Shown here: positions 4,356 through 17,843 of the stretch, piece after piece | Layout: each line of letters opens with the position of its first letter | How positions within the stretch are numbered: the stretch's first letter is position 1 | Origin: a bacterium | GTDB taxonomy: Bacteria > Verrucomicrobiota > Kiritimatiellia > CAIKKV01 > CAIYGI01 | Reading direction: 5' to 3' | DNA length: 64,000 nucleotides | NCBI GenBank assembly: GCA_025360745.1 | Contig: JANYBP010000043.1 | Location: 10,455 to 74,454, forward strand | Translations under genes and position numbers: made by a program | The notes under the pieces: model-generated | Database searches by the model: none | What the model saw: the letters and a program-made list of their open reading frames with translations, nothing else | What the model was told of the DNA's origin: nothing

Positions 4356-6218
4356 ATGCGCGAACACGTAGCTCCCGAACGTAGAATTTTTAAATTGAAC
4401 CTGAAGGCCAGCGATCCGCTGGCCAACCGCCTTTTTGCGCTCGTCGGCGCCCAGATCGAGCGGATGCTGTCGCTGCATCATCTCGAAAAGATCTATTCCG
4501 ACATTCTGGATCGCGGCGGCACGAAAGGTTTCCCCGAGAAGGCTCTGGAGGTCTGTAATGTCGGCTACGACATGACCGCGACGGAATGGGAGCGCATTCC
4601 GCGCACAGGACCGGTGATCGTCGTCGCCAATCATCCCTTCGGAGGCATCGAAGGCATCGTTTTGGCCTCCCTGATGCGCTCGGTGCGTCCGGACGTTAAA
4701 TTGCTCTCGAATTATCTGCTGCGCCGCATTCCCGAGATGCGCGAACTCATGATCGCCGTGGATCCCTTCGGCAGCGAGACGGCGACGCGCACGAACATCC
4801 GCCCGATGAAGGAGGCGATCAAATGGTTGCGCGAGGGACACATGCTGGGCGTGTTCCCTTCCGGCGAGGTTTCCCATCTTGACATGCGCGCGCGCTGCAT
4901 TACCGATCCCAAGTGGTCCGATAGTATTGGACGCCTGGCGCAGATCACGGGCGCGCCCGTGCTGCCGATATTCTTCGAGGGGATGAATTCGGTTTTTTTC
5001 CAGATTATGGGTTTGGTGCATCCGCGGTTACGCACCGTCATGCTGCCGAGGGAAATACTGAACAAGGCCAACCGTACGATCAAAATCAAGGTGGGGCATG
5101 TGATCCCGCCGGAGAAGCTGGGCGAATTCTCGTCCGGCGCCGAACTGACAGCCTACCTGCGTTTGCGAACCTACCTGCTTTCGAACCGCGCCGGCGCCAA
5201 ACCATCGCGCCGCATGCTTTGGAAGCCGCGCCCGCGCCCGCGGATCGAAGCGCCGCTGAGCCCCGCCGAATCCCCAGCGGCCATGGCGGCCGAAGTCGCG
5301 GCATTGCCGCCCGAGCAGACGCTGGTGAAGAGCAACGAGTTGCGCGTGCTGATCGGCGAAACGCCGCAGATTCCCTGCATTTTGCGCGAAATCGGGCGCC
5401 TGCGCGAAAGCACCTTCCGCACGGTCGGCGAGGGCACAGGACTGTGCACCGATCTGGACGCCTATGACGCCTACTACAGTCACCTCTTCATCTGGAACGA
5501 CACGACGCATGAAGTGGTCGGCGCCTACCGTCTGGGCAGAACCGATGAAATTCTGGCCCGCATGGGCGCCAAGGGCCTCTATACGCGCTCGCTCTTCGTT
5601 TTCAAACCCAGCATGCTCAACCAGTTGAATCCCGCGCTGGAACTCGGCCGCTCGTTCGTGCGCGTCGAGTATCAGAAGAGCTACACGCCATTGCTGCTGC
5701 TCTGGAAGGGACTTGGACACTACATCGGCCTGCATCCGCGCTATGCGATCCTTTTCGGACCGGTCAGCATTTCCAACGACTACCTTTCCTTCTCGCGCTA
5801 CCTGATCGCCGCCTTTCTCAGCGTCAACAACTTCCTGCCCGACCTCTCGCGGCTGGTGCGCGCCCGCAAGCCGCTGCGGCGCAGACGTTTCCGGGGCGGA
5901 CTCGACCCGAACCTGACCAGCGCCATGGTGACCGACCTTGACGATCTGGCCGCGTTGCTGGCGGATATCGAGAGCGACGAAAAAGGCGTGCCGATCCTGC
6001 TCAAGCAGTATCTGCGCCTCGGCGGGCGCATGCTGGGCTTCAATCTCGATCCGAAATTCGGCGATTGCCTCGACGGATTGATCATGGTGGATCTGCGCAA
6101 GACCGAGCCGCGCATGCTGGCGCGCTATCTGGGCAAGCATGACGCCGCCGGTTTGCTGAACTACCACGGCCTGAAGTTGCCGCCCGAACTGTTGCCGGAC
6201 GGCGACCGGCCCGCCTAA
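4356..6218 (+). CDS. Bifunctional acyltransferase, OlsF-like: N-terminal PlsC-type O-acyltransferase plus C-terminal OlsB/hemolysin-like GNAT N-acyltransferase
   Basis: N-terminal half: VIVVANHPFGGIEGIVL ... GVFPSGEVSH (PlsC-like). C-terminal half: HLFIWNDTTHEVVGAYRL ... LELGRSFVRVEYQ (OlsB-family signature). ORF opens at 4209 but overlaps the opposite-strand gene, so ATG 4356 is preferred. Confidence 0.65.
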   Translation: MREHVAPERRIFKLNLKASDPLANRLFALVGAQIERMLSLHHLEKIYSDILDRGGTKGFPEKALEVCNVGYDMTATEWERIPRTGPVIVVANHPFGGIEGIVLASLMRSVRPDVKLLSNYLLRRIPEMRELMIAVDPFGSETATRTNIRPMKEAIKWLREGHMLGVFPSGEVSHLDMRARCITDPKWSDSIGRLAQITGAPVLPIFFEGMNSVFFQIMGLVHPRLRTVMLPREILNKANRTIKIKVGHVIPPEKLGEFSSGAELTAYLRLRTYLLSNRAGAKPSRRMLWKPRPRPRIEAPLSPAESPAAMAAEVAALPPEQTLVKSNELRVLIGETPQIPCILREIGRLRESTFRTVGEGTGLCTDLDAYDAYYSHLFIWNDTTHEVVGAYRLGRTDEILARMGAKGLYTRSLFVFKPSMLNQLNPALELGRSFVRVEYQKSYTPLLLLWKGLGHYIGLHPRYAILFGPVSISNDYLSFSRYLIAAFLSVNNFLPDLSRLVRARKPLRRRRFRGGLDPNLTSAMVTDLDDLAALLADIESDEKGVPILLKQYLRLGGRMLGFNLDPKFGDCLDGLIMVDLRKTEPRMLARYLGKHDAAGLLNYHGLKLPPELLPDGDRPA

Positions 6219-8716: not shown

Positions 8717-8850
8717 GCCCCACCCTTCGCCTCCACAAATACGCAGATAGGTTGTCAGTCGGTATTCTGTTACACTCTAGGCGAAAAACATGCGCGCGAC
8801 CACACATAACTGACAGTCTTCAGCCTAAGCAGCCTTTTGGAGCATCGTTC

Positions 8851-9555
8851 ATGGCCGATATTCCCGTGCAATGTCCCGCCTGCGGCAATCGGTTCCAAGT
8901 CTCGGAATACGCGGATCGGGATAAATTGCTGTGCGCCAAATGCGGCGCGGCCATTCCGCCGCCGGAACAGCAGGCGGTGACAGCGGAATATCCCGCACCC
9001 AAACTGCGACTTGCCACAGCCCAACCCATCATAACGCCCGTCGTGCCGCCGCCAAGCGCGGAACTGAGCGTTACCCAGGCATGGATGCGCCGCCGGCAGC
9101 AACACGCCAAAAGCAAATCCTCGCGCCGCCATCTATCGCTCCTGACCCGGCTCAATTCCTCCACCTGGTCTAATTGGGCAATTTTCATCCTGCTCGCGGG
9201 GGTCGGCATCTACTTGCGTTTCTTTGCGCCGATGTCCGCCGCATTGCATGGCGAGTTGCGTTACTGGGGCGCCATGGCGCTGCTGGCCTGTCACATCACG
9301 ATCGTCATTTCGGCGTTTTCGGACGAGACATTTCAAGGCATACTGTGTCTGCTGGTTCCAGTCTATTCGCTGTATTATCTTTACAGTTTATCCGACGAAC
9401 ATTTTTTGCGCGCCATCATGGCGGCCCTGGCCCTGGCCTTCGGTATGGATGCCTGGCAGTATTTGAACGCCATTACCAACGATGTCTTCGACGGCGTCAA
9501 TCGCTGGATGCAGGCCGGCGGCGATACGAGCAATCAACGCATTTACGGGCGCTGA
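8851..9555 (+). CDS. Zinc-ribbon domain membrane protein (hypothetical)
   Basis: CPACGNRF...CAKCGA zinc ribbon followed by Pro-rich linker and 3-4 TM helices. ATG 8851 is preceded by GGAG. Confidence 0.6.
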   Translation: MADIPVQCPACGNRFQVSEYADRDKLLCAKCGAAIPPPEQQAVTAEYPAPKLRLATAQPIITPVVPPPSAELSVTQAWMRRRQQHAKSKSSRRHLSLLTRLNSSTWSNWAIFILLAGVGIYLRFFAPMSAALHGELRYWGAMALLACHITIVISAFSDETFQGILCLLVPVYSLYYLYSLSDEHFLRAIMAALALAFGMDAWQYLNAITNDVFDGVNRWMQAGGDTSNQRIYGR

Positions 9556-9581: not shown

Positions 9582-10763
9582 TCAGACTTTAACCATCACC
9601 TTGGCGCTGTTTCGCAATCCAGCCGCGCATCCGATCAAGAGCCCATAAACCAGCACCAGTTTGGCGTCGCCAAAATTATATTCCACCAACCCGTTCAGCA
9701 GCAGCGCGCAAAATCCCAGCAGCAGCGCCAGCGAGAGCATGCCTTCCGCGCCCGCGGAACGGCGGGTGCGTCGAAACAGACCGACTGCGTCCAGCAGCGC
9801 CGCGCCCATCCAGGCCAGGTAAAGCGCGAGGCCGATCCAGCCGGTGGAAACCACCATTTCAACCGGGTTGGAGTGCAGATGGTCGCGGTCCGGCTCGATT
9901 TCCGGGACGATGCGGCGGTAGTCATCGTTGGTGAGCGAACGGTACCCCGCCCCACACCACGGGTGTTCGCGCACCAGCGCCGGGGCCAGCTTCGTCCACA
10001 TCGTCATGCGTCCGCCCCGCCCCGCATCGAACTCGTCCTCCAAAGCCTGCAGGCGGTGCTGCATCGGCGGCAGCGACAGCAAAACCACAAGCGCCGCCGC
10101 CAGGCCAAGCCAGGCTTTCCAGCCACCGCGCACGGCCAGCAGAACCGCCAGCATGGCCGCGGTTGCAAACCAGGCGCCGCGCTTGAAACTCAGCGCCAGT
10201 GCCAGCCCCGTCAGCGCCGCCACCAGCCACCACCAGGCGGGGCGGCCGCCCAGCCGGCGCACCGCCATGATGAATCCCAGCGCCAGAATCAACCCCACCA
10301 TGCAGCGCTGACTGTCGGACATCGAGCCCGTGTTCACCAGAGCCGTCATGAAGTCCGGCTGTAACCCGGCCTGCCAGGTTTTCCAAGCATGCCAGGGCGC
10401 CAGCACCAGCGTTCGCAGCGCCACCAGCGACGCGCCGATCGCATAGGCGCCCAGCACGGTTGCCAGCCGATCTGAAGTCGTCACCAGCCAGCCGCCGGCC
10501 AGTGCGCCCGCAAACCAGAAAAGTTTTGTCAAACACGGCACGCCGCGGTACGGATCGACGCCATAAACCGTCACGCCAACGGCCCAGGCCAAAAACACAA
10601 GATAGAGCCAGCCGCTCGGTGCGAGTGTCACGGATGCACGCCTCCTCACGCGATCGACAACGAACATCAGCAAAGTCACCGCCAGCATAACCCGTCCAAA
10701 AGGCAGCGAGAAACCGGCGAAAAACGCCGAGGCCGCAAAACAGATGAAGAGCGTTTGTTCCAT
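9582..10763 (-). CDS. O-antigen ligase family protein (Wzy_C / WaaL-like polymerase/ligase)
   Basis: About 10 TM helices with a large periplasmic loop. Typical O-antigen ligase topology and composition. Confidence 0.75.
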   Translation of the reverse strand: MEQTLFICFAASAFFAGFSLPFGRVMLAVTLLMFVVDRVRRRASVTLAPSGWLYLVFLAWAVGVTVYGVDPYRGVPCLTKLFWFAGALAGGWLVTTSDRLATVLGAYAIGASLVALRTLVLAPWHAWKTWQAGLQPDFMTALVNTGSMSDSQRCMVGLILALGFIMAVRRLGGRPAWWWLVAALTGLALALSFKRGAWFATAAMLAVLLAVRGGWKAWLGLAAALVVLLSLPPMQHRLQALEDEFDAGRGGRMTMWTKLAPALVREHPWCGAGYRSLTNDDYRRIVPEIEPDRDHLHSNPVEMVVSTGWIGLALYLAWMGAALLDAVGLFRRTRRSAGAEGMLSLALLLGFCALLLNGLVEYNFGDAKLVLVYGLLIGCAAGLRNSAKVMVKV

Positions 10764-10786
10764 GGTTTGCCTTTAAATCGACGACC

Positions 10787-11068
10787 TCATCGTCTTACCG
10801 GCGTCTTGTAGGTAATGCGACCGTCTCGAACTGTCAAAATAACAGCTATGATTGGACCTTCTGGGTCTGTGCGAAACGCATGATTGTGCGTAATCGTCCC
10901 GTCTTCATTCGTATGAACATAAAAATCAATTCCCAGCAGAGGAGCCACTTGGACGTATTCGCTTCCCAAAACTATTCTGTCATAAACCACCTGTTCTGGA
11001 TTATTTTTCTGACCACCGCATCCGCTCGCCGTCCAGAGCAGAAGAAGGAAAATGCACAAGCGCCGCAT
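10787..11068 (-). CDS. Small lipoprotein (hypothetical)
   Basis: Signal peptide with lipobox LWTASGC. 93 aa. In the low-GC islet. Confidence 0.5.
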   Translation of the reverse strand: MRRLCIFLLLLWTASGCGGQKNNPEQVVYDRIVLGSEYVQVAPLLGIDFYVHTNEDGTITHNHAFRTDPEGPIIAVILTVRDGRITYKTPVRR

Positions 11069-11108
11069 TACGCACCTCCCACCATGGCAAATAAAACTTT
11101 TTAATTCT

Positions 11109-11537
11109 CTACTCTCTGCCGATCTTTATCGGCGCTTTCTGAGCGACACTCATTCTACCCACAAAATGCAAACAGGCTGAAAGCCCTCCGATCATCAAAG
11201 CATTTGCATACGTTGTCCAGCGCACAGTTAAGGCTGTGCTGGTATAATTATAGACCATAGCGCAAACCACACCTACAGTCAGGATAAGACCCACGGCAAG
11301 TTTACCTACAGTGTTTTCATTCACAATTGGGTTCCCTAATCCCCGTTCACGTTCAATACGATGCCGCACCAGCATCGCAATCCCGTGAATGAGCAAAACG
11401 ATTGCAGCACCACACACCACATCGATCCACATTGAACGCCTCAATGTCTCCAGCATATAGAGTGACACCCCCCCAAGAACGACTACCATTCGCCGACGAT
11501 TCGTTCTTTTTTTGCCATCACAAGTCATATTTGCCAC
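11109..11537 (-). CDS. Small multi-pass membrane protein (candidate immunity protein)
   Basis: 3-4 predicted TM segments. No recognisable domain. Downstream of the toxin-like gene on the same strand. Confidence 0.45.
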   Translation of the reverse strand: MANMTCDGKKRTNRRRMVVVLGGVSLYMLETLRRSMWIDVVCGAAIVLLIHGIAMLVRHRIERERGLGNPIVNENTVGKLAVGLILTVGVVCAMVYNYTSTALTVRWTTYANALMIGGLSACLHFVGRMSVAQKAPIKIGRE

Positions 11538-11594
11538 TCTATTTTCCTATCAGGTTATAACGAAACACCAAAAACTTTGTTCCCACCCAAACAC

Positions 11595-11897
11595 CTACTC
11601 GCAAAACATCGAGCCCGCAGTCAGCACACCCTTGACTTTTTCTCGGAGTTTTCTCAACAACGCCAAGAATAAACCTGCCATCGCCCCGATGACTGCATTC
11701 ACCAGAAAGCAGAATGGAAGAAGTCGCCATGCGAGATCCAGTCCTTTTCCGCTGTGCGCAAATTGGCACCCCCTTCGTGCCTGCATCCGACTATTTCGAG
11801 TGGCCACAATGCTTTCGTTCGCCGGTGAATGCACCAATGACGGCCCATGTGGTTTGCAAAACGCCAGAGACAACCCATCCGAAAAGTAGTGAGACAA
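11595..11897 (-). CDS. Small membrane protein (uncertain; may start at internal Met about 11786, or be fused by frameshift to 11791..12150)
   Basis: Hydrophobic C-terminal half (LLPFCFLVNAVIGAMAGLFLALL). Overlaps the upstream ORF by about 107 nt in another frame. Confidence 0.3.
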   Translation of the reverse strand: MSHYFSDGLSLAFCKPHGPSLVHSPANESIVATRNSRMQARRGCQFAHSGKGLDLAWRLLPFCFLVNAVIGAMAGLFLALLRKLREKVKGVLTAGSMFCE

Positions 11898-12150
11898 CTA
11901 CATCGATTGCTGAGAACAAGAAGGTAAAGCAAATGCCCCAAATACCCACCACAGCCTTCGGCGTGTTTCCCGAGAACACAAATAGTACATCTTCCGGAAA
12001 GCACTTCCACCACTCCAGCAGACTTGGAGGAGGTCCCTTCACTCGACTGCCGAAATCGACGAACATCAAAGTTATAAAAATCAATGTCGAGATTGTGAAC
12101 CACAGTGGTCTACATGCTATTATCTTGGATCTCAAAATTGACTGGACCAT
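11791..12150 (-). CDS. Small multi-pass membrane protein (candidate immunity protein)
   Basis: Three hydrophobic segments. Starts 13 nt downstream of the RHS-tail toxin-like gene stop. Confidence 0.45.
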   Translation of the reverse strand: MVQSILRSKIIACRPLWFTISTLIFITLMFVDFGSRVKGPPPSLLEWWKCFPEDVLFVFSGNTPKAVVGIWGICFTFLFSAIDVVVSLLFGWVVSGVLQTTWAVIGAFTGERKHCGHSK

Positions 12151-12162
12151 ACGAAAGACCTC

Positions 12163-12939
12163 TCAATGACATGGGCCAACGTCTTGCGCTGAACAACCCC
12201 CGGTTATGAGTTCCGAGAATTCTGCCCCGGGCCAGAATGCCCGTTCGGTATAAGCCCCTCCTTCTCCGACAACTTGAAGGAGATCTACCCACGAATTTCC
12301 GATCTCAAGCACCTTCACCTTTGTGTCCTGCCAGTTTGCAAGAACCGTTTGGCGCCCCGGACCTGTAGCGCCCTTGGCATATCCCCGAATCGAATCACCA
12401 AGATTATAACTCTTCGCGCTGCCAATTGTCGTATGAACTCCCGCGTAGCCGTCGTATCCGGTCCATTGGGACTGGAACTGCCAGGAACATGTCACAAGAA
12501 AAGTCCTGCAACACGAATGCCTTGCTTTGACCCAGATTCGTGTTTCAGTATCACACAAATAGTTCCTGTAAAAAGGCAACGTTGTGCATGTCACAAATGC
12601 AGCGGCCGAACTACTCTCGCGAGGTCCAGAAGCCCATGCTCGTTTGCTAACCCCCCGATTATTGTCGCAGTCTGACTGCCCCCAAGACTTCCATTCTAAC
12701 AACCCGAGGGGATCCAACATATCTATTGTTCGATTGCGGACAAAAACATACAACGTTGGCGGCGGCGGACTCTTCGGAACCCCTCTGCGAATACCCACGG
12801 AATCGGTTGCATGCCGTTCATCTCCCAACGGATCTCTATTGAGCCATCTTCCCTCGTCCGGATGGTAATACGCTAGGGCCTTAACAACCAAACTACTTAA
12901 AATCAAACAACTCAAAAGAAAATACCGTATGCTTTTCAT
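12163..12939 (-). CDS. Secreted mini-RHS-tail protein: signal peptide plus RHS core-end/DPxGL motif plus novel Cys/Trp-rich C-terminal (toxin-like) domain
   Basis: MKSIRYFLLSCLILSSLVVKALA signal peptide, then YYHPDEGRWLNRDPLGDE ... TLYVFVRNRTIDMLDPLGL. This matches the RHS repeat-associated core terminal consensus (YYDPxxGRWxxxDPxG ... LYxYVxNNPxxxxDPxGL). No YD repeats anywhere. About 170-aa C-terminal domain of unknown family. Confidence 0.6.
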   Translation of the reverse strand: MKSIRYFLLSCLILSSLVVKALAYYHPDEGRWLNRDPLGDERHATDSVGIRRGVPKSPPPPTLYVFVRNRTIDMLDPLGLLEWKSWGQSDCDNNRGVSKRAWASGPRESSSAAAFVTCTTLPFYRNYLCDTETRIWVKARHSCCRTFLVTCSWQFQSQWTGYDGYAGVHTTIGSAKSYNLGDSIRGYAKGATGPGRQTVLANWQDTKVKVLEIGNSWVDLLQVVGEGGAYTERAFWPGAEFSELITGGCSAQDVGPCH

Positions 12940-14530
12940 GACTGCCCCTTTTGTTTTCTGGATCCCTCCAGGAATTTGTATTCATCAGCGTCTGGTACAG
13001 CAATGCCGAGGCAACGGTGCCGTCTTTGGAATCTTTCTTCACTTGATCCCGCATAAGTTGATTAAGTCTAGCAATATCCACGCCCTCCTTCTTCCTCAAG
13101 TTGTCCGCATAAGTTTTCACCGTCGCATGTTGTTTTTCACGCCCGTGTTGCTTGAGACAGAGTGCCCGTAACTCCAAGAAGGCGGCCAGTTCCCTTTTTG
13201 GAGACAGGGACTTCATGTACATTCCCGTTTCGAGTTCCTCCTTGGATATAGGCCAGGGCCACTCCATGTATTCCTGATCCGGATAACAGTTCAACCCTCG
13301 ATTAGTTCCTTCGATATTGAAGCGATCCTTGGCATCTTCCCACCTTACAAATAGGTGGCCTTTGCATTCGACAAGTTTCAGGGGATACCCCAGCCGCCTG
13401 CCGACGGCAACATAGAAGACAGGTAAGGATGCGCACGTTCCCTGATGCGCGGCCTCTGTCAGGCCGTGAATAAAAAGATCATGAGAATTTCCAAAGAACG
13501 AAAAGTCATTGCGGATGACTTCCACCGGTCCAGCCCGCATCTTCGGATCCTTGTTGTAACATACCTTGAAATCTTCCTGGAGGACGCAAATCATCATCAG
13601 AACGCGAAAGTATGCTTCAGAATTATTGAACTCTTCAGGTGTTTTCTGAAATTTGTAGAGATGCCTGTCTGTCTCATGTTTGACCCAAGCCGCCAACTGA
13701 TCGAAATCATTCCGCGTTTTCTCGACATCGAGTTTCTCTGCACCAGGTAGTCCCTTGGCCGCAAGGAGATTGATTTCGGCAATATCGTAGTCTTTCGAGG
13801 ACGCCTTCTTTTCCAGCATCTCGCACAAATTGAGTTCAGCGGTGTCAAAACCCTCGCCAACGGGGTGCGGGCGAATGCCAATCGATTCCTGTTTTGGGCG
13901 AACATCCAAGCCCGGGCCCCGCATAAGCCTCAAATTTTGCTGGTTAATTTCTGCTGTCCGCTGGAGTGACACTTGTCTTAGGCGCTCATTCTGTTGCTGT
14001 ATCTTGTCAGAATATTCATCGTCCGCCGACCTTGCAGACTGCCCGTTCCCTGATGACGTCTGCTTTATGTGTTCTTGTTCCTGTATATTCAGTTGCCCTT
14101 TATTTACTTCCAGCGCTTGCTGTTGGTACTCTTGAAACTCCTTCGTTGTCGCGACCTGAAGTTCGATTCTACTGAGTTCACGTTTCATTTCTATCACGTA
14201 TTCTTGCAGATGCGGCGGAATTGCGTTCGTGTGCGTGGACGATAATGCTTCCAAATTTCTTCTTATTTTCATGGCTCGTAACTCGAACTCGTCCATAGCC
14301 ATCTGTTGATTCACGATGTTCTGTTCATCTTGTTCAAGACTCAGTCTTTTGGCGGTTATGGCAAGTTGCTCCGGGTCTGTGTAACCTGCAACTCTGCGAC
14401 TATTTTGTGCAAAGACTGGAAACTCTGCCAGAACAAGCGGTAGAATGGTTGCAAGTGCGGTTAGCAAGATGCTGACACGCGGGAGCAATCTCGGTTTTCG
14501 TCGCTCGCTACTCATAAAAGCCGTTTGCAA
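12893..14530 (-). CDS. Secreted coiled-coil protein with C-terminal transglutaminase-like cysteine-protease domain
   Basis: N-terminal signal/TM. About 250 aa Gln/Glu-rich coiled coil. C-terminal GTCASLPVFYVAVGRRLGYPLKLVECKGHLFVRWED...FNIEGT matches the transglutaminase-like core (GxC ... ALGIPAR ... HAWVE ... D). 3' end overlaps the next gene by 47 nt. Confidence 0.6.
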   Translation of the reverse strand: MQTAFMSSERRKPRLLPRVSILLTALATILPLVLAEFPVFAQNSRRVAGYTDPEQLAITAKRLSLEQDEQNIVNQQMAMDEFELRAMKIRRNLEALSSTHTNAIPPHLQEYVIEMKRELSRIELQVATTKEFQEYQQQALEVNKGQLNIQEQEHIKQTSSGNGQSARSADDEYSDKIQQQNERLRQVSLQRTAEINQQNLRLMRGPGLDVRPKQESIGIRPHPVGEGFDTAELNLCEMLEKKASSKDYDIAEINLLAAKGLPGAEKLDVEKTRNDFDQLAAWVKHETDRHLYKFQKTPEEFNNSEAYFRVLMMICVLQEDFKVCYNKDPKMRAGPVEVIRNDFSFFGNSHDLFIHGLTEAAHQGTCASLPVFYVAVGRRLGYPLKLVECKGHLFVRWEDAKDRFNIEGTNRGLNCYPDQEYMEWPWPISKEELETGMYMKSLSPKRELAAFLELRALCLKQHGREKQHATVKTYADNLRKKEGVDIARLNQLMRDQVKKDSKDGTVASALLYQTLMNTNSWRDPENKRGSHEKHTVFSFELFDFK

Positions 14531-14718
14531 AATGCGCTGGCGAACAGGTTAAAATGATCTAACTGACAAGGTGATGTGCGCTTCGAGGGCAATATACCAA
14601 GCGAAATCTACGTTAGAAGCAATAGATTGCAAGTTCTTGAACCCGTTTCTAGATGAATTCCGGTTCGGCATGCAGCCGAAATTGGCCCGTCCCCGTCGCC
14701 TTCTTCGGGTTGCCAACA

Positions 14719-15387
14719 TCAAGGGGCGGCATGTTTCCCAACGTCCAATGGAATTACAATGCGCTCTCCAATGACAAGCGCACGCTCAGCGTCAATCCTA
14801 TTGGCCTTCATGATCCCCGCACTGGTGACTCCGAAGGCTTCTGCGACTGTCCGAATGGTATCCCCCCTCTTTGCTATATAAGACATCATGACTTGCTTCA
14901 CATTTTCTGTTATTGATGTTTTGCCATAACCGCCATCGCCATTTTTTACTGGAGCGCGCCCATCGAAGTTATCGCTCAGATCGACAACCCTGGCGCTTTG
15001 TCCCTTGCCAGTTCCCAAAATATCCGTGAGCTGTCCTAGTCGACTGTCGATATCTGCTATAGCCACCTCGTTGTTGAATCCCATTTGCCGCCAACTGATG
15101 CGAATCCGCGTGCCACTTACAAGAGTTGCCTCCACATATTTTTGCGACGTCACGTCAATCTGAACCAAGCGCATGCCTCTATTCCAAGCGCGTTCATATA
15201 ACTGCAACGCCACGCAGAACGATGTCGCGCCGACTATTCTTACCCGGTCTTCTTGCGTGCTGTTCACTGCTTGAGTCGGACTGACGCGCAGACTGTCATC
15301 GTCAGTTCTCTCCACAACCCAAACCGGATCAGCTCCACAACTTACTGCACAAAGCATTACCAATAGGCACGCATGCATATGATTCAT
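14719..15387 (-). CDS. Lipoprotein with C-terminal LysM peptidoglycan-binding domain
   Basis: Lipobox AVSCG. C-terminal YIAKRGDTIRTVAEAFGVTSAGIMKANRI...GERIVIP is a LysM motif. Confidence 0.7.
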   Translation of the reverse strand: MNHMHACLLVMLCAVSCGADPVWVVERTDDDSLRVSPTQAVNSTQEDRVRIVGATSFCVALQLYERAWNRGMRLVQIDVTSQKYVEATLVSGTRIRISWRQMGFNNEVAIADIDSRLGQLTDILGTGKGQSARVVDLSDNFDGRAPVKNGDGGYGKTSITENVKQVMMSYIAKRGDTIRTVAEAFGVTSAGIMKANRIDAERALVIGERIVIPLDVGKHAAP

Positions 15388-15480
15388 ATACGTCTCCAGA
15401 AAAAGATGGATGCGGAAAGCGACCCATACATCGCTCGTTAATTTCCATGGTTATTCGCCTGTAACTGGTGTTTCAACATA

Positions 15481-16503
15481 TTACAACGCCCAGGCGATCA
15501 GTCGCCAGTATCCGGCCAGCAGGGCGCCGGCTACGCCCGCCAGGCGCGCGGACAGGCCGCCGCGCACGCCGGGGGGCGGATCAGGGCGGCCGCCGCACAG
15601 CAGTTCCCTGTCCGAAACGAGTTTGCGCGGCACGAAGGCGCGCCGCTTGCGCAGCGCCCCGGAAAGCCCGCACAGCGCATGCCAGGCGCCGCGCGCAAAT
15701 TCCCCGCCCTGCCCCTTGAACAGGAAGAATACGCCGGCGCAGGCCTGATAAAAGATCAGCGCGGGCAGCGCCAGCCAGAGGGTTTTGGAATCGTAATGCC
15801 GCACCACGAACCACCAGCGGTTGCGGGTCTGCAGCGCGATCCAGCGCGTCCCGCGCGGACGGGCCATATGATACGCCAGCGCCGCGGGCGCCGCGTAACA
15901 GGGATGACCCAGGGCCGCCATACGGAATGCCAGGTCCCCATCTTCCCATCCGAAAAACAGATCCTCGTCAAAAGCATCGGCGGCCAGGGCCGCCGACCGG
16001 TTGTAAAGCGCCGCGCCCGCGGAAACCGTGCCGACCCGCGCGGGCTCATCGCCGCGGGGCCGGTAGACCACCACCTCGGCGGCGTAGTGCAGAAAGGCCC
16101 CGCAGTACTGCATTGTTTGCGGTTCGGCATGCAGCCGGATCTGCCCCGTCACCGCACCCGCGCCGGGTTGTGCCGCGAAAACCGCCGCCAGCCGTTGAAC
16201 GTAATCCGGGGCCAGCACGAGGTCGTTGTCCATGATCAGCACGAGTTCCGTTTCCGCCGCGCGCAGCGCCGCGTTGCGCGCCGGATTCGGACCGCGGTTG
16301 TCCGGCATTTCGATCACCTGGACCCGTCCGGCATAACGCGCGCGCAGCAGTGACAGGGAATCGTCCGAGGAGTGGTTGTCCACCGCCAGAATCGAATGCA
16401 AAACGATGCCAGTCTGGGCCAGCACGGAATCGAGGGTTGGCCCGAGCACGGCTGCGCCGTTGTAGTTGATCACCGCGACGGTGATGCCGGCGGCGGCGGT
16501 CAT
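15481..16503 (-). CDS. Glycosyltransferase family 2
   Basis: VAVINYNGAAVL...DNHSSDDS...DNDLVL GT-A fold motifs (DxD). Start ATG overlaps the stop of the upstream deacetylase gene (ATGA 16500-16503). Confidence 0.85.
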   Translation of the reverse strand: MTAAAGITVAVINYNGAAVLGPTLDSVLAQTGIVLHSILAVDNHSSDDSLSLLRARYAGRVQVIEMPDNRGPNPARNAALRAAETELVLIMDNDLVLAPDYVQRLAAVFAAQPGAGAVTGQIRLHAEPQTMQYCGAFLHYAAEVVVYRPRGDEPARVGTVSAGAALYNRSAALAADAFDEDLFFGWEDGDLAFRMAALGHPCYAAPAALAYHMARPRGTRWIALQTRNRWWFVVRHYDSKTLWLALPALIFYQACAGVFFLFKGQGGEFARGAWHALCGLSGALRKRRAFVPRKLVSDRELLCGGRPDPPPGVRGGLSARLAGVAGALLAGYWRLIAWAL

Positions 16504-17843
16504 GACCGGCGGGCTCCGGCCGCGGACGGCGCGGGAAGGTGCAGGTTGGAAGGTGGAGGTTGGAGGGTGGAAGGTGGAGGGTGGAGGGTGGAAGGTGGAG
16601 GGTGGAGGGTGGAAGACGAATCGGTTCCAGCAGTACTCGGGGACGGCGCGGCGATGCGCACGGCATAGGGGAGCAGAACGGCGCGACGATGCACGGAGAG
16701 GGAACTGCTCACCGCCAGGCGGCGGGCGGCGCCCGCGCCTTCACGCCAGGTCGCGCCCACCGACAATTCGCATGCGCCCGGCGTCGCGCTGTCCGGAACG
16801 ACCAGCGGCACTTCCATAACCTGCGCCCACATGTCCGCCCCCTCCGAAAGCACATTATCCGCCTGCGCCAGCATGCGGCCACGCTGGCGCAGGTGGATGA
16901 ATCCGACCAGAGCGGAGGACTCCGCCTCCGCGGGCACGGACCAGTAACACCGCAGCAGCAGGCGTTCGCCTGGCGCGACGGGACCCTCCGGCGCGCCGAT
17001 TCCCAGCAGCGTGACGCCGCGATCGAAGGCCGCCAGCGGCGCTTCGGCGCGGGCGATCAATTCCGGCACGGTCACAAAGGTGTAACCGCGCGCCTTAAGC
17101 GCCGCCAGCACCTGTTCCAGAACCTTGACCACCACGGCGCGGTTGAATCCCAACTGGGTATCGTGTCCATCGTGCAGCAAAAGAATGGCGCCCGAACTCA
17201 CCCGCCGCAGCATGTAATCCGCCATGACTTCCGGCGGATCGTTATGCCAATCGTAGGCATGCACCGAGACGCCGACATTGATCTGGTTTTCGGCCCGGCA
17301 CAGTCCCGCCAAACCACGATAGCGGCGGTCGGCGGCGCTGACGCCAACGGCCTTGGCGCCCGCCTCCTCATCCGGCCCGAAAATGCCGAAGGGATCGCGA
17401 AATAACACCGGACGCACACCCGTCACGGCGGCGATGGCGTCGGCGCCGTGACGGATCTGGTCGCGCCGTTCCGCATACGAAATCCGGTCGAAGCGCGGAT
17501 GGTCGTAGGAGTGGTTGCCGATCGCATGGCCGGCCTGCAACATACGCCGCACCGTGTCCGGACTGCGTTCGACATTGGTGCCGACGAGGAAAAAAGTCGC
17601 CCGCACCGACTCGCGGTCGAGAACGTCGAGCACCTGCGAGGTGTAGGGTTCATTCGGACCATCATCGAAGGTAAGCGCCACCACGCGCCCCGCAACCGGC
17701 ACATAACTTACAAGATCGCCCGCTTGAGGCCTGAAGGGCAGCCGTTCCGGTCCGCGGCATCCCGCCAGCGCAAAGACAGCGATAAAAACGAGCACGGAGG
17801 CACAAAGGGCTTTAATAGCGCATCGCACAACTTTCATGCGCAC
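16500..17843 (-). CDS. Polysaccharide deacetylase (NodB/CE4) lipoprotein with Pro-rich repeat tail
   Basis: Lipobox LAGC. NodB motifs TFDDGP...HSYDHP. C-terminal (STLHPPP)n tail encoded by a GGTGGA-type tandem repeat. Confidence 0.85.
   Translation of the reverse strand: MRMKVVRCAIKALCASVLVFIAVFALAGCRGPERLPFRPQAGDLVSYVPVAGRVVALTFDDGPNEPYTSQVLDVLDRESVRATFFLVGTNVERSPDTVRRMLQAGHAIGNHSYDHPRFDRISYAERRDQIRHGADAIAAVTGVRPVLFRDPFGIFGPDEEAGAKAVGVSAADRRYRGLAGLCRAENQINVGVSVHAYDWHNDPPEVMADYMLRRVSSGAILLLHDGHDTQLGFNRAVVVKVLEQVLAALKARGYTFVTVPELIARAEAPLAAFDRGVTLLGIGAPEGPVAPGERLLLRCYWSVPAEAESSALVGFIHLRQRGRMLAQADNVLSEGADMWAQVMEVPLVVPDSATPGACELSVGATWREGAGAARRLAVSSSLSVHRRAVLLPYAVRIAAPSPSTAGTDSSSTLHPPPSTLHPPPSTLQPPPSNLHLPAPSAAGARRS
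16541..16620. repeat. Tandem GGTGGA/GGGTGGA-type repeat (coding, Pro-rich tail); a dispersed second copy of the motif lies at 47150-47200
   Basis: ttggaaggtggaggttggagggtggaaggtggagggtggagggtggaaggtggagggtggagggtggaag seen directly in the sequence. Confidence 0.8.

Follow-up and report, generated by a model that had tools for sequence, protein, structure and literature searches.

The 64,000-nucleotide (nt) stretch analysed here, hereafter the window (contig JANYBP010000043.1 of assembly GCA_025360745.1, from a bacterium of the Kiritimatiellia), contains an islet of low G+C content in the middle of a glycan operon. The islet fills the whole slot between the stop codon of a GT2 glycosyltransferase gene and a point 4 nt upstream of the start codon of a Wzy_C/O-antigen-ligase-family gene. 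Its six genes all lie on the minus strand (Table 1) and encode, in the direction of transcription, a LysM lipoprotein, a transglutaminase-like protein that we call the helper, a small toxin that retains the end of an Rhs core, two small membrane proteins and a lipoprotein. The initial annotation had the strand and, as checks of open reading frames (ORFs) and protein families indicate, essentially the right list of products; its count of six or seven genes settles at six, and the flanking gene that it took for a flippase actually encodes an LPG_synthase_TM-family protein. It is plausible that the islet genes form a single operon; scans for promoter and terminator consensus sequences gave nothing informatively above a shuffled background. 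Three of the six genes, those for the helper, the toxin and a putative immunity protein, make up a conserved module, as comparison with other loci shows. We consider it likely that the islet is foreign cargo in a replaceable slot of the glycan operon, built around a Sec-dependent polymorphic toxin-immunity module as its functional core.

Table 1. Features of the islet and its immediate flanks (coordinates are those of the window)
Feature	Coordinates	Strand	Remarks
GT2 glycosyltransferase, native flank upstream in the sense of transcription	15481..16503	-	Pfam Glyco_tranf_2_3, 1.5e-21; GC3 0.80
Low-G+C islet	10768..15478	.	4711 bp; edges placed by comparison with relative L003
LysM lipoprotein (predicted), first islet gene	14719..15387	-	222 aa; N-terminus MNHMHACLLVMLCAVSC; orphan
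Helper gene	12893..14530	-	545 aa from TTG 14530 or 540 aa from ATG 14515
DNA block conserved between loci	12821..13837	-	Helper transglutaminase domain and 3' end, toxin start and signal, first Rhs motif
Toxin gene	12163..12939	-	258 aa; overlaps helper 3' end by 47 nt, in a different frame
Immunity candidate, polytopic membrane protein	11791..12150	-	119 aa; 12 nt downstream of toxin
Small membrane protein	11109..11537	-	107 aa from ATG 11432 (metagenome calls) or 142 aa from GTG 11537
Lipoprotein (predicted), last islet gene	10787..11068	-	93 aa; MRRLCIFLLLLWTASGC; ends 23 nt before Wzy start
Wzy_C/O-antigen-ligase-family gene, native flank downstream	9582..10763	-	Pfam Wzy_C, 2.9e-19; GC3 0.77

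Rhs toxins are understood as cocoons, in which a shell of YD repeats encloses the toxin and a C-terminal plug cuts the toxin free. The toxin of the islet has a tripartite organization. Its first 23 residues (nt 12871-12939) form a predicted signal peptide that ends in ALA, with YY directly after the cleavage site. Residues 24-80 (nt 12700-12870; YYHPDEGRWLNRDPLG...DPLGL) correspond to the tip of an Rhs core, with both DPxG motifs and no YD-repeat shell, and residues 81-258 (nt 12166-12699) form a cysteine-rich, all-beta C-terminal domain. The N-terminus thus reads MKSIRYFLLSCLILSSLVVKALA up to the cleavage site and YYHPDEGRWLNRDPLGDE beyond it, followed after 35 residues by DPLGLLEW. The RHS_repeat family (PF05593) has no match in the 258-amino-acid (aa) protein, whose signal peptide and C-terminal domain are only about 57 residues apart. 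The match to TIGR03696 (Rhs_assc_core) covers the end of that model, positions 37-76, and scores 21.3 bits (E = 2.8e-4) where the cutoff is 32.5; the same model is matched by 91 of 94 tip proteins from related loci, the best at 2.8e-15. Within this tip family D36-P37 is invariant, and D76 and G79 of the second motif are conserved in at least 90% of the members. An AlphaFold2 (AF2) model predicts the tip to be disordered and the C-terminal domain to be all-beta, with a predicted local distance difference test score (pLDDT) of about 80.

The signal peptide and the tip form a constant part to which very different C-termini are attached. A search of 5.8 billion proteins with the toxin returned five other matches of 194-281 aa, each alignable over its first ~80 residues only. 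In four of them the signal peptide and tip are nearly identical to those of the window protein (the fifth, P0006, has no signal peptide), and each has an unrelated C-terminus. Over 190 pairs from the closest subfamily, the median identity is 43% for signal and tip versus 15.7% for the C-termini, which are related in 4 of the 190 pairs. Only about nine of the 94 tip proteins have C-termini that match a Pfam family, and these are all toxins: TNT NAD-glycohydrolase (1.8e-25), phospholipases A2, a Tle1-like lipase, a cell-wall hydrolase (Hydrolase_2) and an M76 peptidase. In divergent subfamilies the n-h-c layout of the signal and the AxA site directly before the tip are kept, with differing residues. 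Toxin C-termini are also rich in cysteine, with a median content of 4.1% versus 1.6% in helpers and housekeeping proteins, which fits folding outside the cytoplasm. These comparisons show that the toxin consists of a conserved export signal, the last ~55 residues of the Rhs core and a C-terminal domain unrelated between members. No type VI secretion system (T6SS) gene was found among those window genes and loci that were examined, and the toxin bears a Sec-type signal.

By sequence comparison, translation of the toxin begins at a start codon of its own, which falls within the last part of the helper gene, its ATG being preceded at 6 nt by an AAGGGG ribosome-binding site. We considered a helper-toxin fusion protein made by frameshifting and rejected it, given the +1 frame of the toxin and its own ribosome-binding site and ATG. 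In the second cassette of another locus, L010 (loci and proteins used for comparison carry the prefixes L and P), a stop codon is found two codons ahead of the toxin ATG.

The helper comprises a basic and hydrophobic anchor or signal (residues 18-35), a three-helix coiled coil (residues 53-204) and a globular domain of transglutaminase/menin-like fold (residues 230-500). Its AF2 model (pLDDT 80.9) displays an N-terminal hydrophobic helix, three long helices and a globular domain. We detected 923 homologs, of which about 45 are full length (47-66% identity) and hundreds are short forms of about 300 aa with the globular domain only; the few named sources are Kiritimatiellae and Verrucomicrobiae. 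In short-form helpers the transglutaminase domain directly follows the signal or transmembrane (TM) segment, whereas in the long form a coiled coil of about 150 residues lies in between. A basic stretch followed by a hydrophobic N-terminal segment is present in 8 of 13 long-form and 60 of 83 short-form helper ORFs, and with such an N-terminus the domain should face the periplasm. The gene call for the helper at the National Center for Biotechnology Information (NCBI), P0007, is 343 aa long and has neither the membrane anchor nor the coiled coil; homologs and the metagenome call support a length of about 540 aa.

Residues C366 and H392 (GTCAS...KGHLF) are invariant in 62 aligned helpers, and E407, conserved in at least 90% of them, probably takes the third position of the triad in place of Asp. 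The Transglut_core2 family (PF13369) is matched by 49 of the 62 aligned helpers, and below threshold by that of the window. Comparison of the helper sequence with the PDB gave coiled-coil noise only and was discarded as a means of identification. The resemblance to menin (3re2_A) is one of fold only, at 11% identity. Unlike menin and the SirB1/Transglut_core2 proteins, the helper is predicted to be extracytoplasmic, membrane-anchored and linked to a toxin, with the Cys and His residues kept.

Helper and tip genes travel together. A metagenome scan with the helper alignment confirmed at least 513 of 600 candidate stretches, and nine more were found in viral contigs. In 63 of the 76 loci with enough downstream sequence, a tip ORF comes right after the helper on the same strand, at a median of 29 nt from the helper stop codon; altogether 115 of 118 tip ORFs are on the helper strand. 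The two genes also overlap in L011 and in the loci of P0015 and P0038, by 62 nt and with a slightly longer signal. Natural helper-tip-toxin fusions without an internal signal peptide occur on four contigs that represent two proteins (L040/L044 and L062/L064); their coordinates are 3330-5132 in L040 and 4117-6033 in L062.

At the DNA level, the islet is 70-76% identical to related loci over about 1 kb (blastn), and the similarity always stops at 12817-12844, just past the RDP motif. Within the conserved block, shorter stretches that run from the 3' end of the helper as far as the first Rhs motif act elsewhere as the repeats that separate cassettes in arrays. Such junction repeats are 77-97% identical within arrays (96.8% for L010 689-1005 versus 5142-5458). 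Arrays occur frequently. In L010, which holds three toxin/immunity cassettes, a fragment of the helper 3' end precedes each extra one, and arrays are also found in L011, L013, L019, L048 and L054. The window has a single cassette and no remnant of a second one. In L006-L009 the toxin lies behind an internally deleted helper remnant, which keeps residues ~45-88 and ~477-540 ahead of an intact mini-toxin (L006 9719-10047; also L007 and L009); the L006 locus adjoins a HipA/HipB-type toxin-antitoxin pair.

Arrays of this kind bring to mind the orphan rhs C-terminal/immunity cassettes known at Rhs loci, for instance in Salmonella Typhimurium. As described in two reports (PMC3967940, PMC7043789), these are short genes, also in tandem, that start within the end of the Rhs core and continue with a C-terminal domain and an immunity gene, and the homology that they share with the 'main' gene permits recombination. 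The tip gene could similarly be a displaced cassette, silent until recombined onto a full-length Rhs protein, with the helper an accessory of the large Rhs. The junction repeats that separate cassettes would suit such a role, as would the long RHS-repeat protein encoded upstream on the same strand in the short-helper loci L036, L043 and L071, and nearby in L012. Against it, the toxin gene has its own ATG and ribosome-binding site, and its signal layout and AxA site are kept where the residues themselves differ, features that set it apart from the orphan cassettes. In addition, the homology block is made of the helper 3' end, the signal and the tip, not of the Rhs core as in those cassettes, and long-helper loci such as the window, L011 and L014 have no Rhs shell gene nearby; none is present in the 64 kb of the window. 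We therefore regard the displaced-cassette explanation as improbable, albeit the best placed of the alternatives.

The L012 locus (Verrucomicrobiae JAMLJH010000002; 6695-8722 and 9664-10851) is peculiar in several respects. It has a full-length RHS-repeat gene on the opposite strand that is apparently interrupted, its reading frame running into an IstB-like IS21 ATPase. Its neighbours are a short helper, two mini-toxin cassettes that are complete and one more toxin gene, of which the 3' end is present.

When residues 84-258 of the window toxin were compared exhaustively by HMMER with 1.84 billion representative proteins, only five true relatives of its C-terminal domain were identified, all short. 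The Rhs tip is present in all three of those whose sequence extends upstream of the domain. Six Cys residues, T133 and E243 are invariant among the relatives, and we recognised no catalytic motif in the domain of the window toxin. The window domain and its relatives P0127-P0130 and P0132 share a CDTET...CCR motif, and the fold predicted for this family resembles that of Bd1399 (DUF4360-like).

The gene that follows the toxin co-varies with the toxin C-terminus. The closest relative of the window toxin C-terminus (46% identity) is P0127 in L013, which is also the sole related toxin whose genomic context was retrieved. The membrane ORF that follows P0127 is 30% identical to the 119-aa protein of the islet over 97 aa (E = 2e-10), with a common GPPxSLxxWWxCFP motif; for the window pair, the co-variation is thus drawn from one independent pair (L013). 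In other cassettes the downstream genes are unrelated to these and include Imm32, ankyrin, TPR, Sel1, WG-repeat and DUF4279 types. Among 80 downstream ORFs, 28 have TM segments and 18 a lipobox-like N-terminus. The 119-aa protein is accordingly our candidate for the cognate immunity protein, as far as gene order and similarity can tell. Since this candidate is a polytopic membrane protein and the toxin C-terminus is rich in disulfides, we infer that the target may lie in the envelope.

A benign role at the cell surface could also be imagined, with the LysM lipoprotein, a periplasmic scaffold and a beta-sandwich binder together decorating or remodelling the surface as a secreted envelope or adhesion system rather than a weapon. 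The C-terminal domain has no catalytic signature, and the fold closest to it is a beta-sandwich, elongated and locked by disulfides, whose function is unknown; furthermore, the islet contains a LysM lipoprotein and is located within a glycan operon. Yet some C-termini of the family are genuine toxins (TNT NADase, phospholipases and a cell-wall hydrolase), the C-termini are hypervariable, the small gene downstream differs from one to the next and in some cases is of a known immunity type, and the LysM gene lies outside the conserved module. Neither does the position in the slot imply a glycan function, because a relative has a DNA methylase gene in the same slot, as described below. A surface role consequently seems to us a little less probable still than a displaced Rhs cassette.

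Base composition sets the islet apart from its surroundings. Taking this 64-kb window, not the whole genome, as the background, G+C content is 0.488 in 10764-15480 versus 0.631 in the remainder (z = -8.1), and none of 499 windows of the same length elsewhere is as low (range 0.596-0.676). In 1-kb bins it amounts to 48-50% across 11001-15000 versus 56-70% in every other kilobase, and the 200-nt profile has abrupt edges near 10750 and 15450. The strand-symmetrised tetranucleotide deviation of the islet is 0.270, versus 0.151 +/- 0.016 and a maximum of 0.196 in other windows. G+C content at third codon positions (GC3) is 0.45-0.53 in the six islet genes versus 0.70-0.80 in the Wzy, GT2, deacetylase and radical-SAM genes. 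Outside the islet, the window has the look of ordinary chromosome, with genes such as those for glutamate synthase and carbamoyl-phosphate synthase.

Evidence on the nature of the slot comes from L003 (CAIYGI010000154, 'uncultured bacterium MJ-time_bin-3222'), the sole close relative in the genome collection used, whose Wzy protein is 90% identical to that of the window. DNA identity with L003 is 88-89% in the flanks. On one side it spans the deacetylase gene and the GT2 gene (88% for the latter) and breaks off at the GT2 stop codon (window 15479); on the other it picks up again at window 10767, 4 nt ahead of the Wzy start, and is 89% there. In the interval, the slot holds 4711 bp in the window and 2619 bp in L003, with no mutual similarity. 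The L003 insert (L003 7378-9996) also has a lowered G+C content, of 0.51-0.57, and, like the window cargo, is oriented as the operon. It encodes a 523-aa type II DNA methyltransferase (N6_N4_Mtase, 2.4e-16; PADLOC MTase_II, 2.4e-31) and a 292-aa protein without a family match, possibly the cognate endonuclease. As L003 holds an unrelated insert between the same flanks, the slot between GT2 and Wzy is a replaceable site, a hotspot for swaps. The islet itself recurs unchanged in gene order and lengths, next to an identical Wzy protein, on metagenome contigs of other sequencing runs, one of these contigs being present in eight samples. We did not find an empty GT2/Wzy site; a metagenome scan with Wzy gave no relatives, and the contig of the third member of the Wzy cluster starts 113 nt upstream of the gene. 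L004 and L005 were set aside as slot comparisons, being too distant and non-syntenic (GT9 instead of GT2), with a spurious match to the 119-aa protein.

The islet itself bears few marks of mobility. None of its six genes matches an integrase or recombinase family in Pfam or NCBIfam, there is no tRNA gene in the 64-kb window, and no meaningful direct or inverted repeats were found around the islet; the mobility hallmarks of a genomic island are thus absent. As to structured RNAs, Rfam has none in the window at gathering thresholds. Homologous modules elsewhere keep different company. A tyrosine integrase adjoins the module at the P0015 locus and an MmeI-type restriction-modification gene at the P0038 locus. 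In the IMG/VR contigs L095-L099 (for example L097 3190-5288 and 5743-8255), the helper/toxin/immunity module is directly beside a large serine recombinase and a DUF2924 protein, and the viral classification of these contigs suggests carriage by prophages or integrative elements. Module G+C content is below that of the upstream DNA in 20 of 25 loci with long flanks, and markedly so in L011 (0.556 versus 0.678).

The initial annotation had proposed that an AT-richer islet of about 4.6 kb in a glycan locus marks the recent horizontal acquisition of an accessory toxin/effector module. The islet is confirmed by its G+C content, GC3, tetranucleotide usage and sharp edges, being an outlier against the rest of the window in sliding-window G+C as well as in tetranucleotide and codon comparisons. 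Its horizontal acquisition is supported by this composition, by the swap in L003 and by the homologous modules near mobility genes, which tend to be lower in G+C than the DNA around them. A relative with different slot content was indeed found, though not one in which the ligase gene directly abuts the GT2 gene, and 'recent' holds only in the sense of a composition that is not yet ameliorated and a content unlike that of the close relative. As for the toxin/effector module, it finds support in a family that is polymorphic in the sense of Zhang et al. 2012 and has known toxin C-termini, and in a downstream membrane protein that varies together with the C-terminus of the toxin.

Restriction-modification genes, a HipA/HipB pair or recombinases adjoin the slot and several of the homologous loci, which raises the question of whether the module might act inside the producer, as an anti-phage defence or a toxin-antitoxin-like addiction system. 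Salmonella orphan Rhs elements can act as toxin-antitoxin modules, according to one report (PMC7043789). Nevertheless, none of the six islet proteins has a PADLOC match, and the export signals on helper and toxin together with the cysteine-rich C-termini point to action outside the cytoplasm, so that we judge an intracellular role to be very unlikely. The idea that the islet is native DNA whose low G+C content reflects local constraints, such as membrane or secreted products or expression level, is near refutation already: secreted and membrane proteins can deviate somewhat in composition and the islet is not flanked by mobility genes, tRNA genes or repeats, but GC3, the least constrained position, is lower by ~0.25-0.3, the neighbouring native membrane proteins (Wzy and LPG_synthase_TM) have a normal G+C content, L003 has other DNA in place of all six genes, and loci of other genomes share the helper/toxin block at 70-76% DNA identity.

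The other three genes of the islet, encoding the LysM, 107/142-aa and 93-aa proteins, are imported to judge by their composition and lie outside the conserved system. The LysM domain of the first (residues 170-213, nt 14749-14880) matches PF01476 with E = 2.3e-8 and 34.3 bits, versus a cutoff of 20.9. The search of 5.8 billion proteins returned only this lipoprotein itself, and it has no homolog in the ~100 related loci; we thus rejected it as a component of the system. The 107/142-aa and 93-aa proteins have no Pfam, NCBIfam or PADLOC family and no homolog in the ~100 related loci. A gap of at least 250 nt separates the immunity gene from the 107/142-aa gene. A degenerate second cassette in 11433-11790 was considered and rejected, as blastn and maximum-sensitivity hidden Markov model searches show no junction or toxin remnant there. 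Small lipoproteins are found after toxins in other arrays (for example L010 3009-3275), and our guess is that the 107/142-aa and 93-aa proteins are encoded by orphan immunity genes.

Two features of the flanks deserve mention. A 21-nt tandem repeat (3.9 copies, 91% matches; alternative unit, the 7-nt GGAGGGT) with a strongly positive GC skew occupies 16534-16615, just ahead of the overlapping GT2 start, and gives the polysaccharide deacetylase a C-terminus of PPSTLH-like repeats. Between the Wzy and radical-SAM genes, 8752-9555 (plus strand) encodes a conserved protein of 234-267 aa with an N-terminal zinc ribbon and C-terminal membrane segments, which is also found in L003 and in metagenome contigs.

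How might the Sec-dependent toxin-immunity module work? It is tempting to propose that helper and toxin would both be exported by Sec, and that signal peptidase would cut after ALA, thereby making the Rhs tip the N-terminus of the mature toxin. The tip could then be held in the peptide-binding cleft of the helper, whose Cys-His pair may also process it, so that the helper would stand in for the beta-cocoon by retaining the toxin, handing it over or releasing it at DPLGL. The disulfide-rich beta-sandwich C-terminus would attack the envelope of a competitor, and the 119-aa membrane protein would shield the producer. New toxin/immunity pairs would enter, in the manner of polymorphic toxins, by recombination within the conserved block of helper 3' end, signal and tip, which might serve as a homology arm. 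In this scheme the Rhs plug, freed from the beta-cocoon, would have become a portable N-terminal handle or pro-peptide, and the Cys-His enzyme would anchor, process or hand over the toxin. That this amounts to a distinct two-component route, widespread in environmental bacteria, apparently of the Verrucomicrobiota, Kiritimatiellota and Lentisphaerota group, and independent of both the T6SS and Rhs encapsulation, is a possibility that we put forward with considerable doubt.

Several observations weigh against reading the islet as such a weapon. The window toxin and helper both match their families below the curated cutoffs. The C-terminal domain of the toxin has no recognisable activity, belongs to no Pfam or NCBIfam family and has only five relatives, and its best fold match, Bd1399, is a secreted Bdellovibrio predation protein of unknown function. 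Moreover, the AF2 model of the toxin is based on an alignment of six sequences and has an overall pLDDT of 65.6. Among the islet and window genes examined, there is no component for outer-membrane secretion or delivery. Some short-helper loci also encode a full-length RHS-repeat protein, and therefore the mini-toxins might depend on a large Rhs protein elsewhere in the genome. Finally, there is no mobility gene, tRNA gene or repeat at the islet to explain its entry.

The closest known relatives are the Sec-dependent Rhs toxins described by Zhang et al. 2012 (PMC3482391), which have an N-terminal inactive transglutaminase domain proposed to be a peptide-binding toxin anchor, and for which examples combining transglutaminase and RHS are listed for Verrucomicrobia. 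The helper/tip system derives from that architecture. The two are linked by the fusions in L040 and L062, which unite a transglutaminase domain, a tip and a toxin and look like intermediates between the toxins of Zhang et al. and the split system. The differences are nonetheless numerous. Here, the transglutaminase-like protein and the toxin are usually encoded by separate, overlapping genes and not in one polypeptide, the toxin carries its own signal peptide, and in place of RHS/YD repeats only the terminal ~55 core residues are found. The catalytic Cys and His residues are invariant here and lost there, and the long-form helper adds a coiled coil of ~150 residues.

In Photorhabdus Rhs1 (PMC8636562), two DPLGL motifs lie ~17 residues apart, with the catalytic Asp in the second one and cleavage just after it. 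The spacing of the DPxG motifs is typically ~18 residues in the tip family, and 35 in the window protein. More generally, the tip family shares with canonical Rhs, TcC and WapA proteins, which have a YD-repeat beta-cocoon and a C-terminal aspartyl-protease plug, the signature of the terminal core, a variable C-terminal domain after the motif, an immunity gene immediately downstream and further cassettes. Unlike them, it has no cocoon, PAAR, VgrG-binding or other N-terminal delivery domain, and the window protein has 258 aa versus more than 1300. The tip is predicted to be the mature N-terminus right after a Sec signal, and in isolation it is disordered according to AF2. The residues of the catalytic motif for aspartyl autoproteolysis are present in the tip, whereas the surrounding plug-in-shell structure is absent.

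Another system resembles the present one in its working principle only. In the myxobacterial sitBAI loci, reportedly described by Vassallo and co-workers in eLife in 2017, SitA lipoprotein toxins are said to be accompanied by an accessory protein, SitB, and an immunity protein, SitI, and to be delivered by TraA/B outer-membrane exchange. Both systems would thus combine an accessory gene, a Sec-exported polymorphic toxin with a conserved N-terminal escort region and a following immunity gene, in multi-copy cassettes on mobile DNA. There is no sequence relationship between them, however, and the present toxins combine a type I signal with an Rhs tip and have a partner that is transglutaminase-like.

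In the full texts searched, we found neither a description of this helper/tip arrangement nor a link of the Transglut_core2 family to toxins; as most subscription journals were outside the coverage of the search, novelty is unproven. The acquisition event is an ordinary one, a conflict module in a hotspot, and the module that it brought represents a variant of the Rhs-type polymorphic toxins that is widespread but of which no published description was found. For annotation, it means that an intergenic slot in a glycan operon can be a swap site for conflict systems, which houses a toxin module in one lineage and an insert of restriction-modification type in another. Hundreds of loci retain nothing but the plug motif of Rhs proteins, after a secretion signal, and tie it genetically, sometimes by fusion, to a transglutaminase-like protein. 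If our reading is true, these loci would show what the conserved Rhs tip is capable of without its shell, and would provide a function for a large group of 'SirB1/Transglut_core2-like' hypothetical proteins. They would also be a rich source of toxin and immunity domains, most of them unknown, from environmental phyla that have received little study, given that about 85 of the 94 C-termini have no Pfam family.

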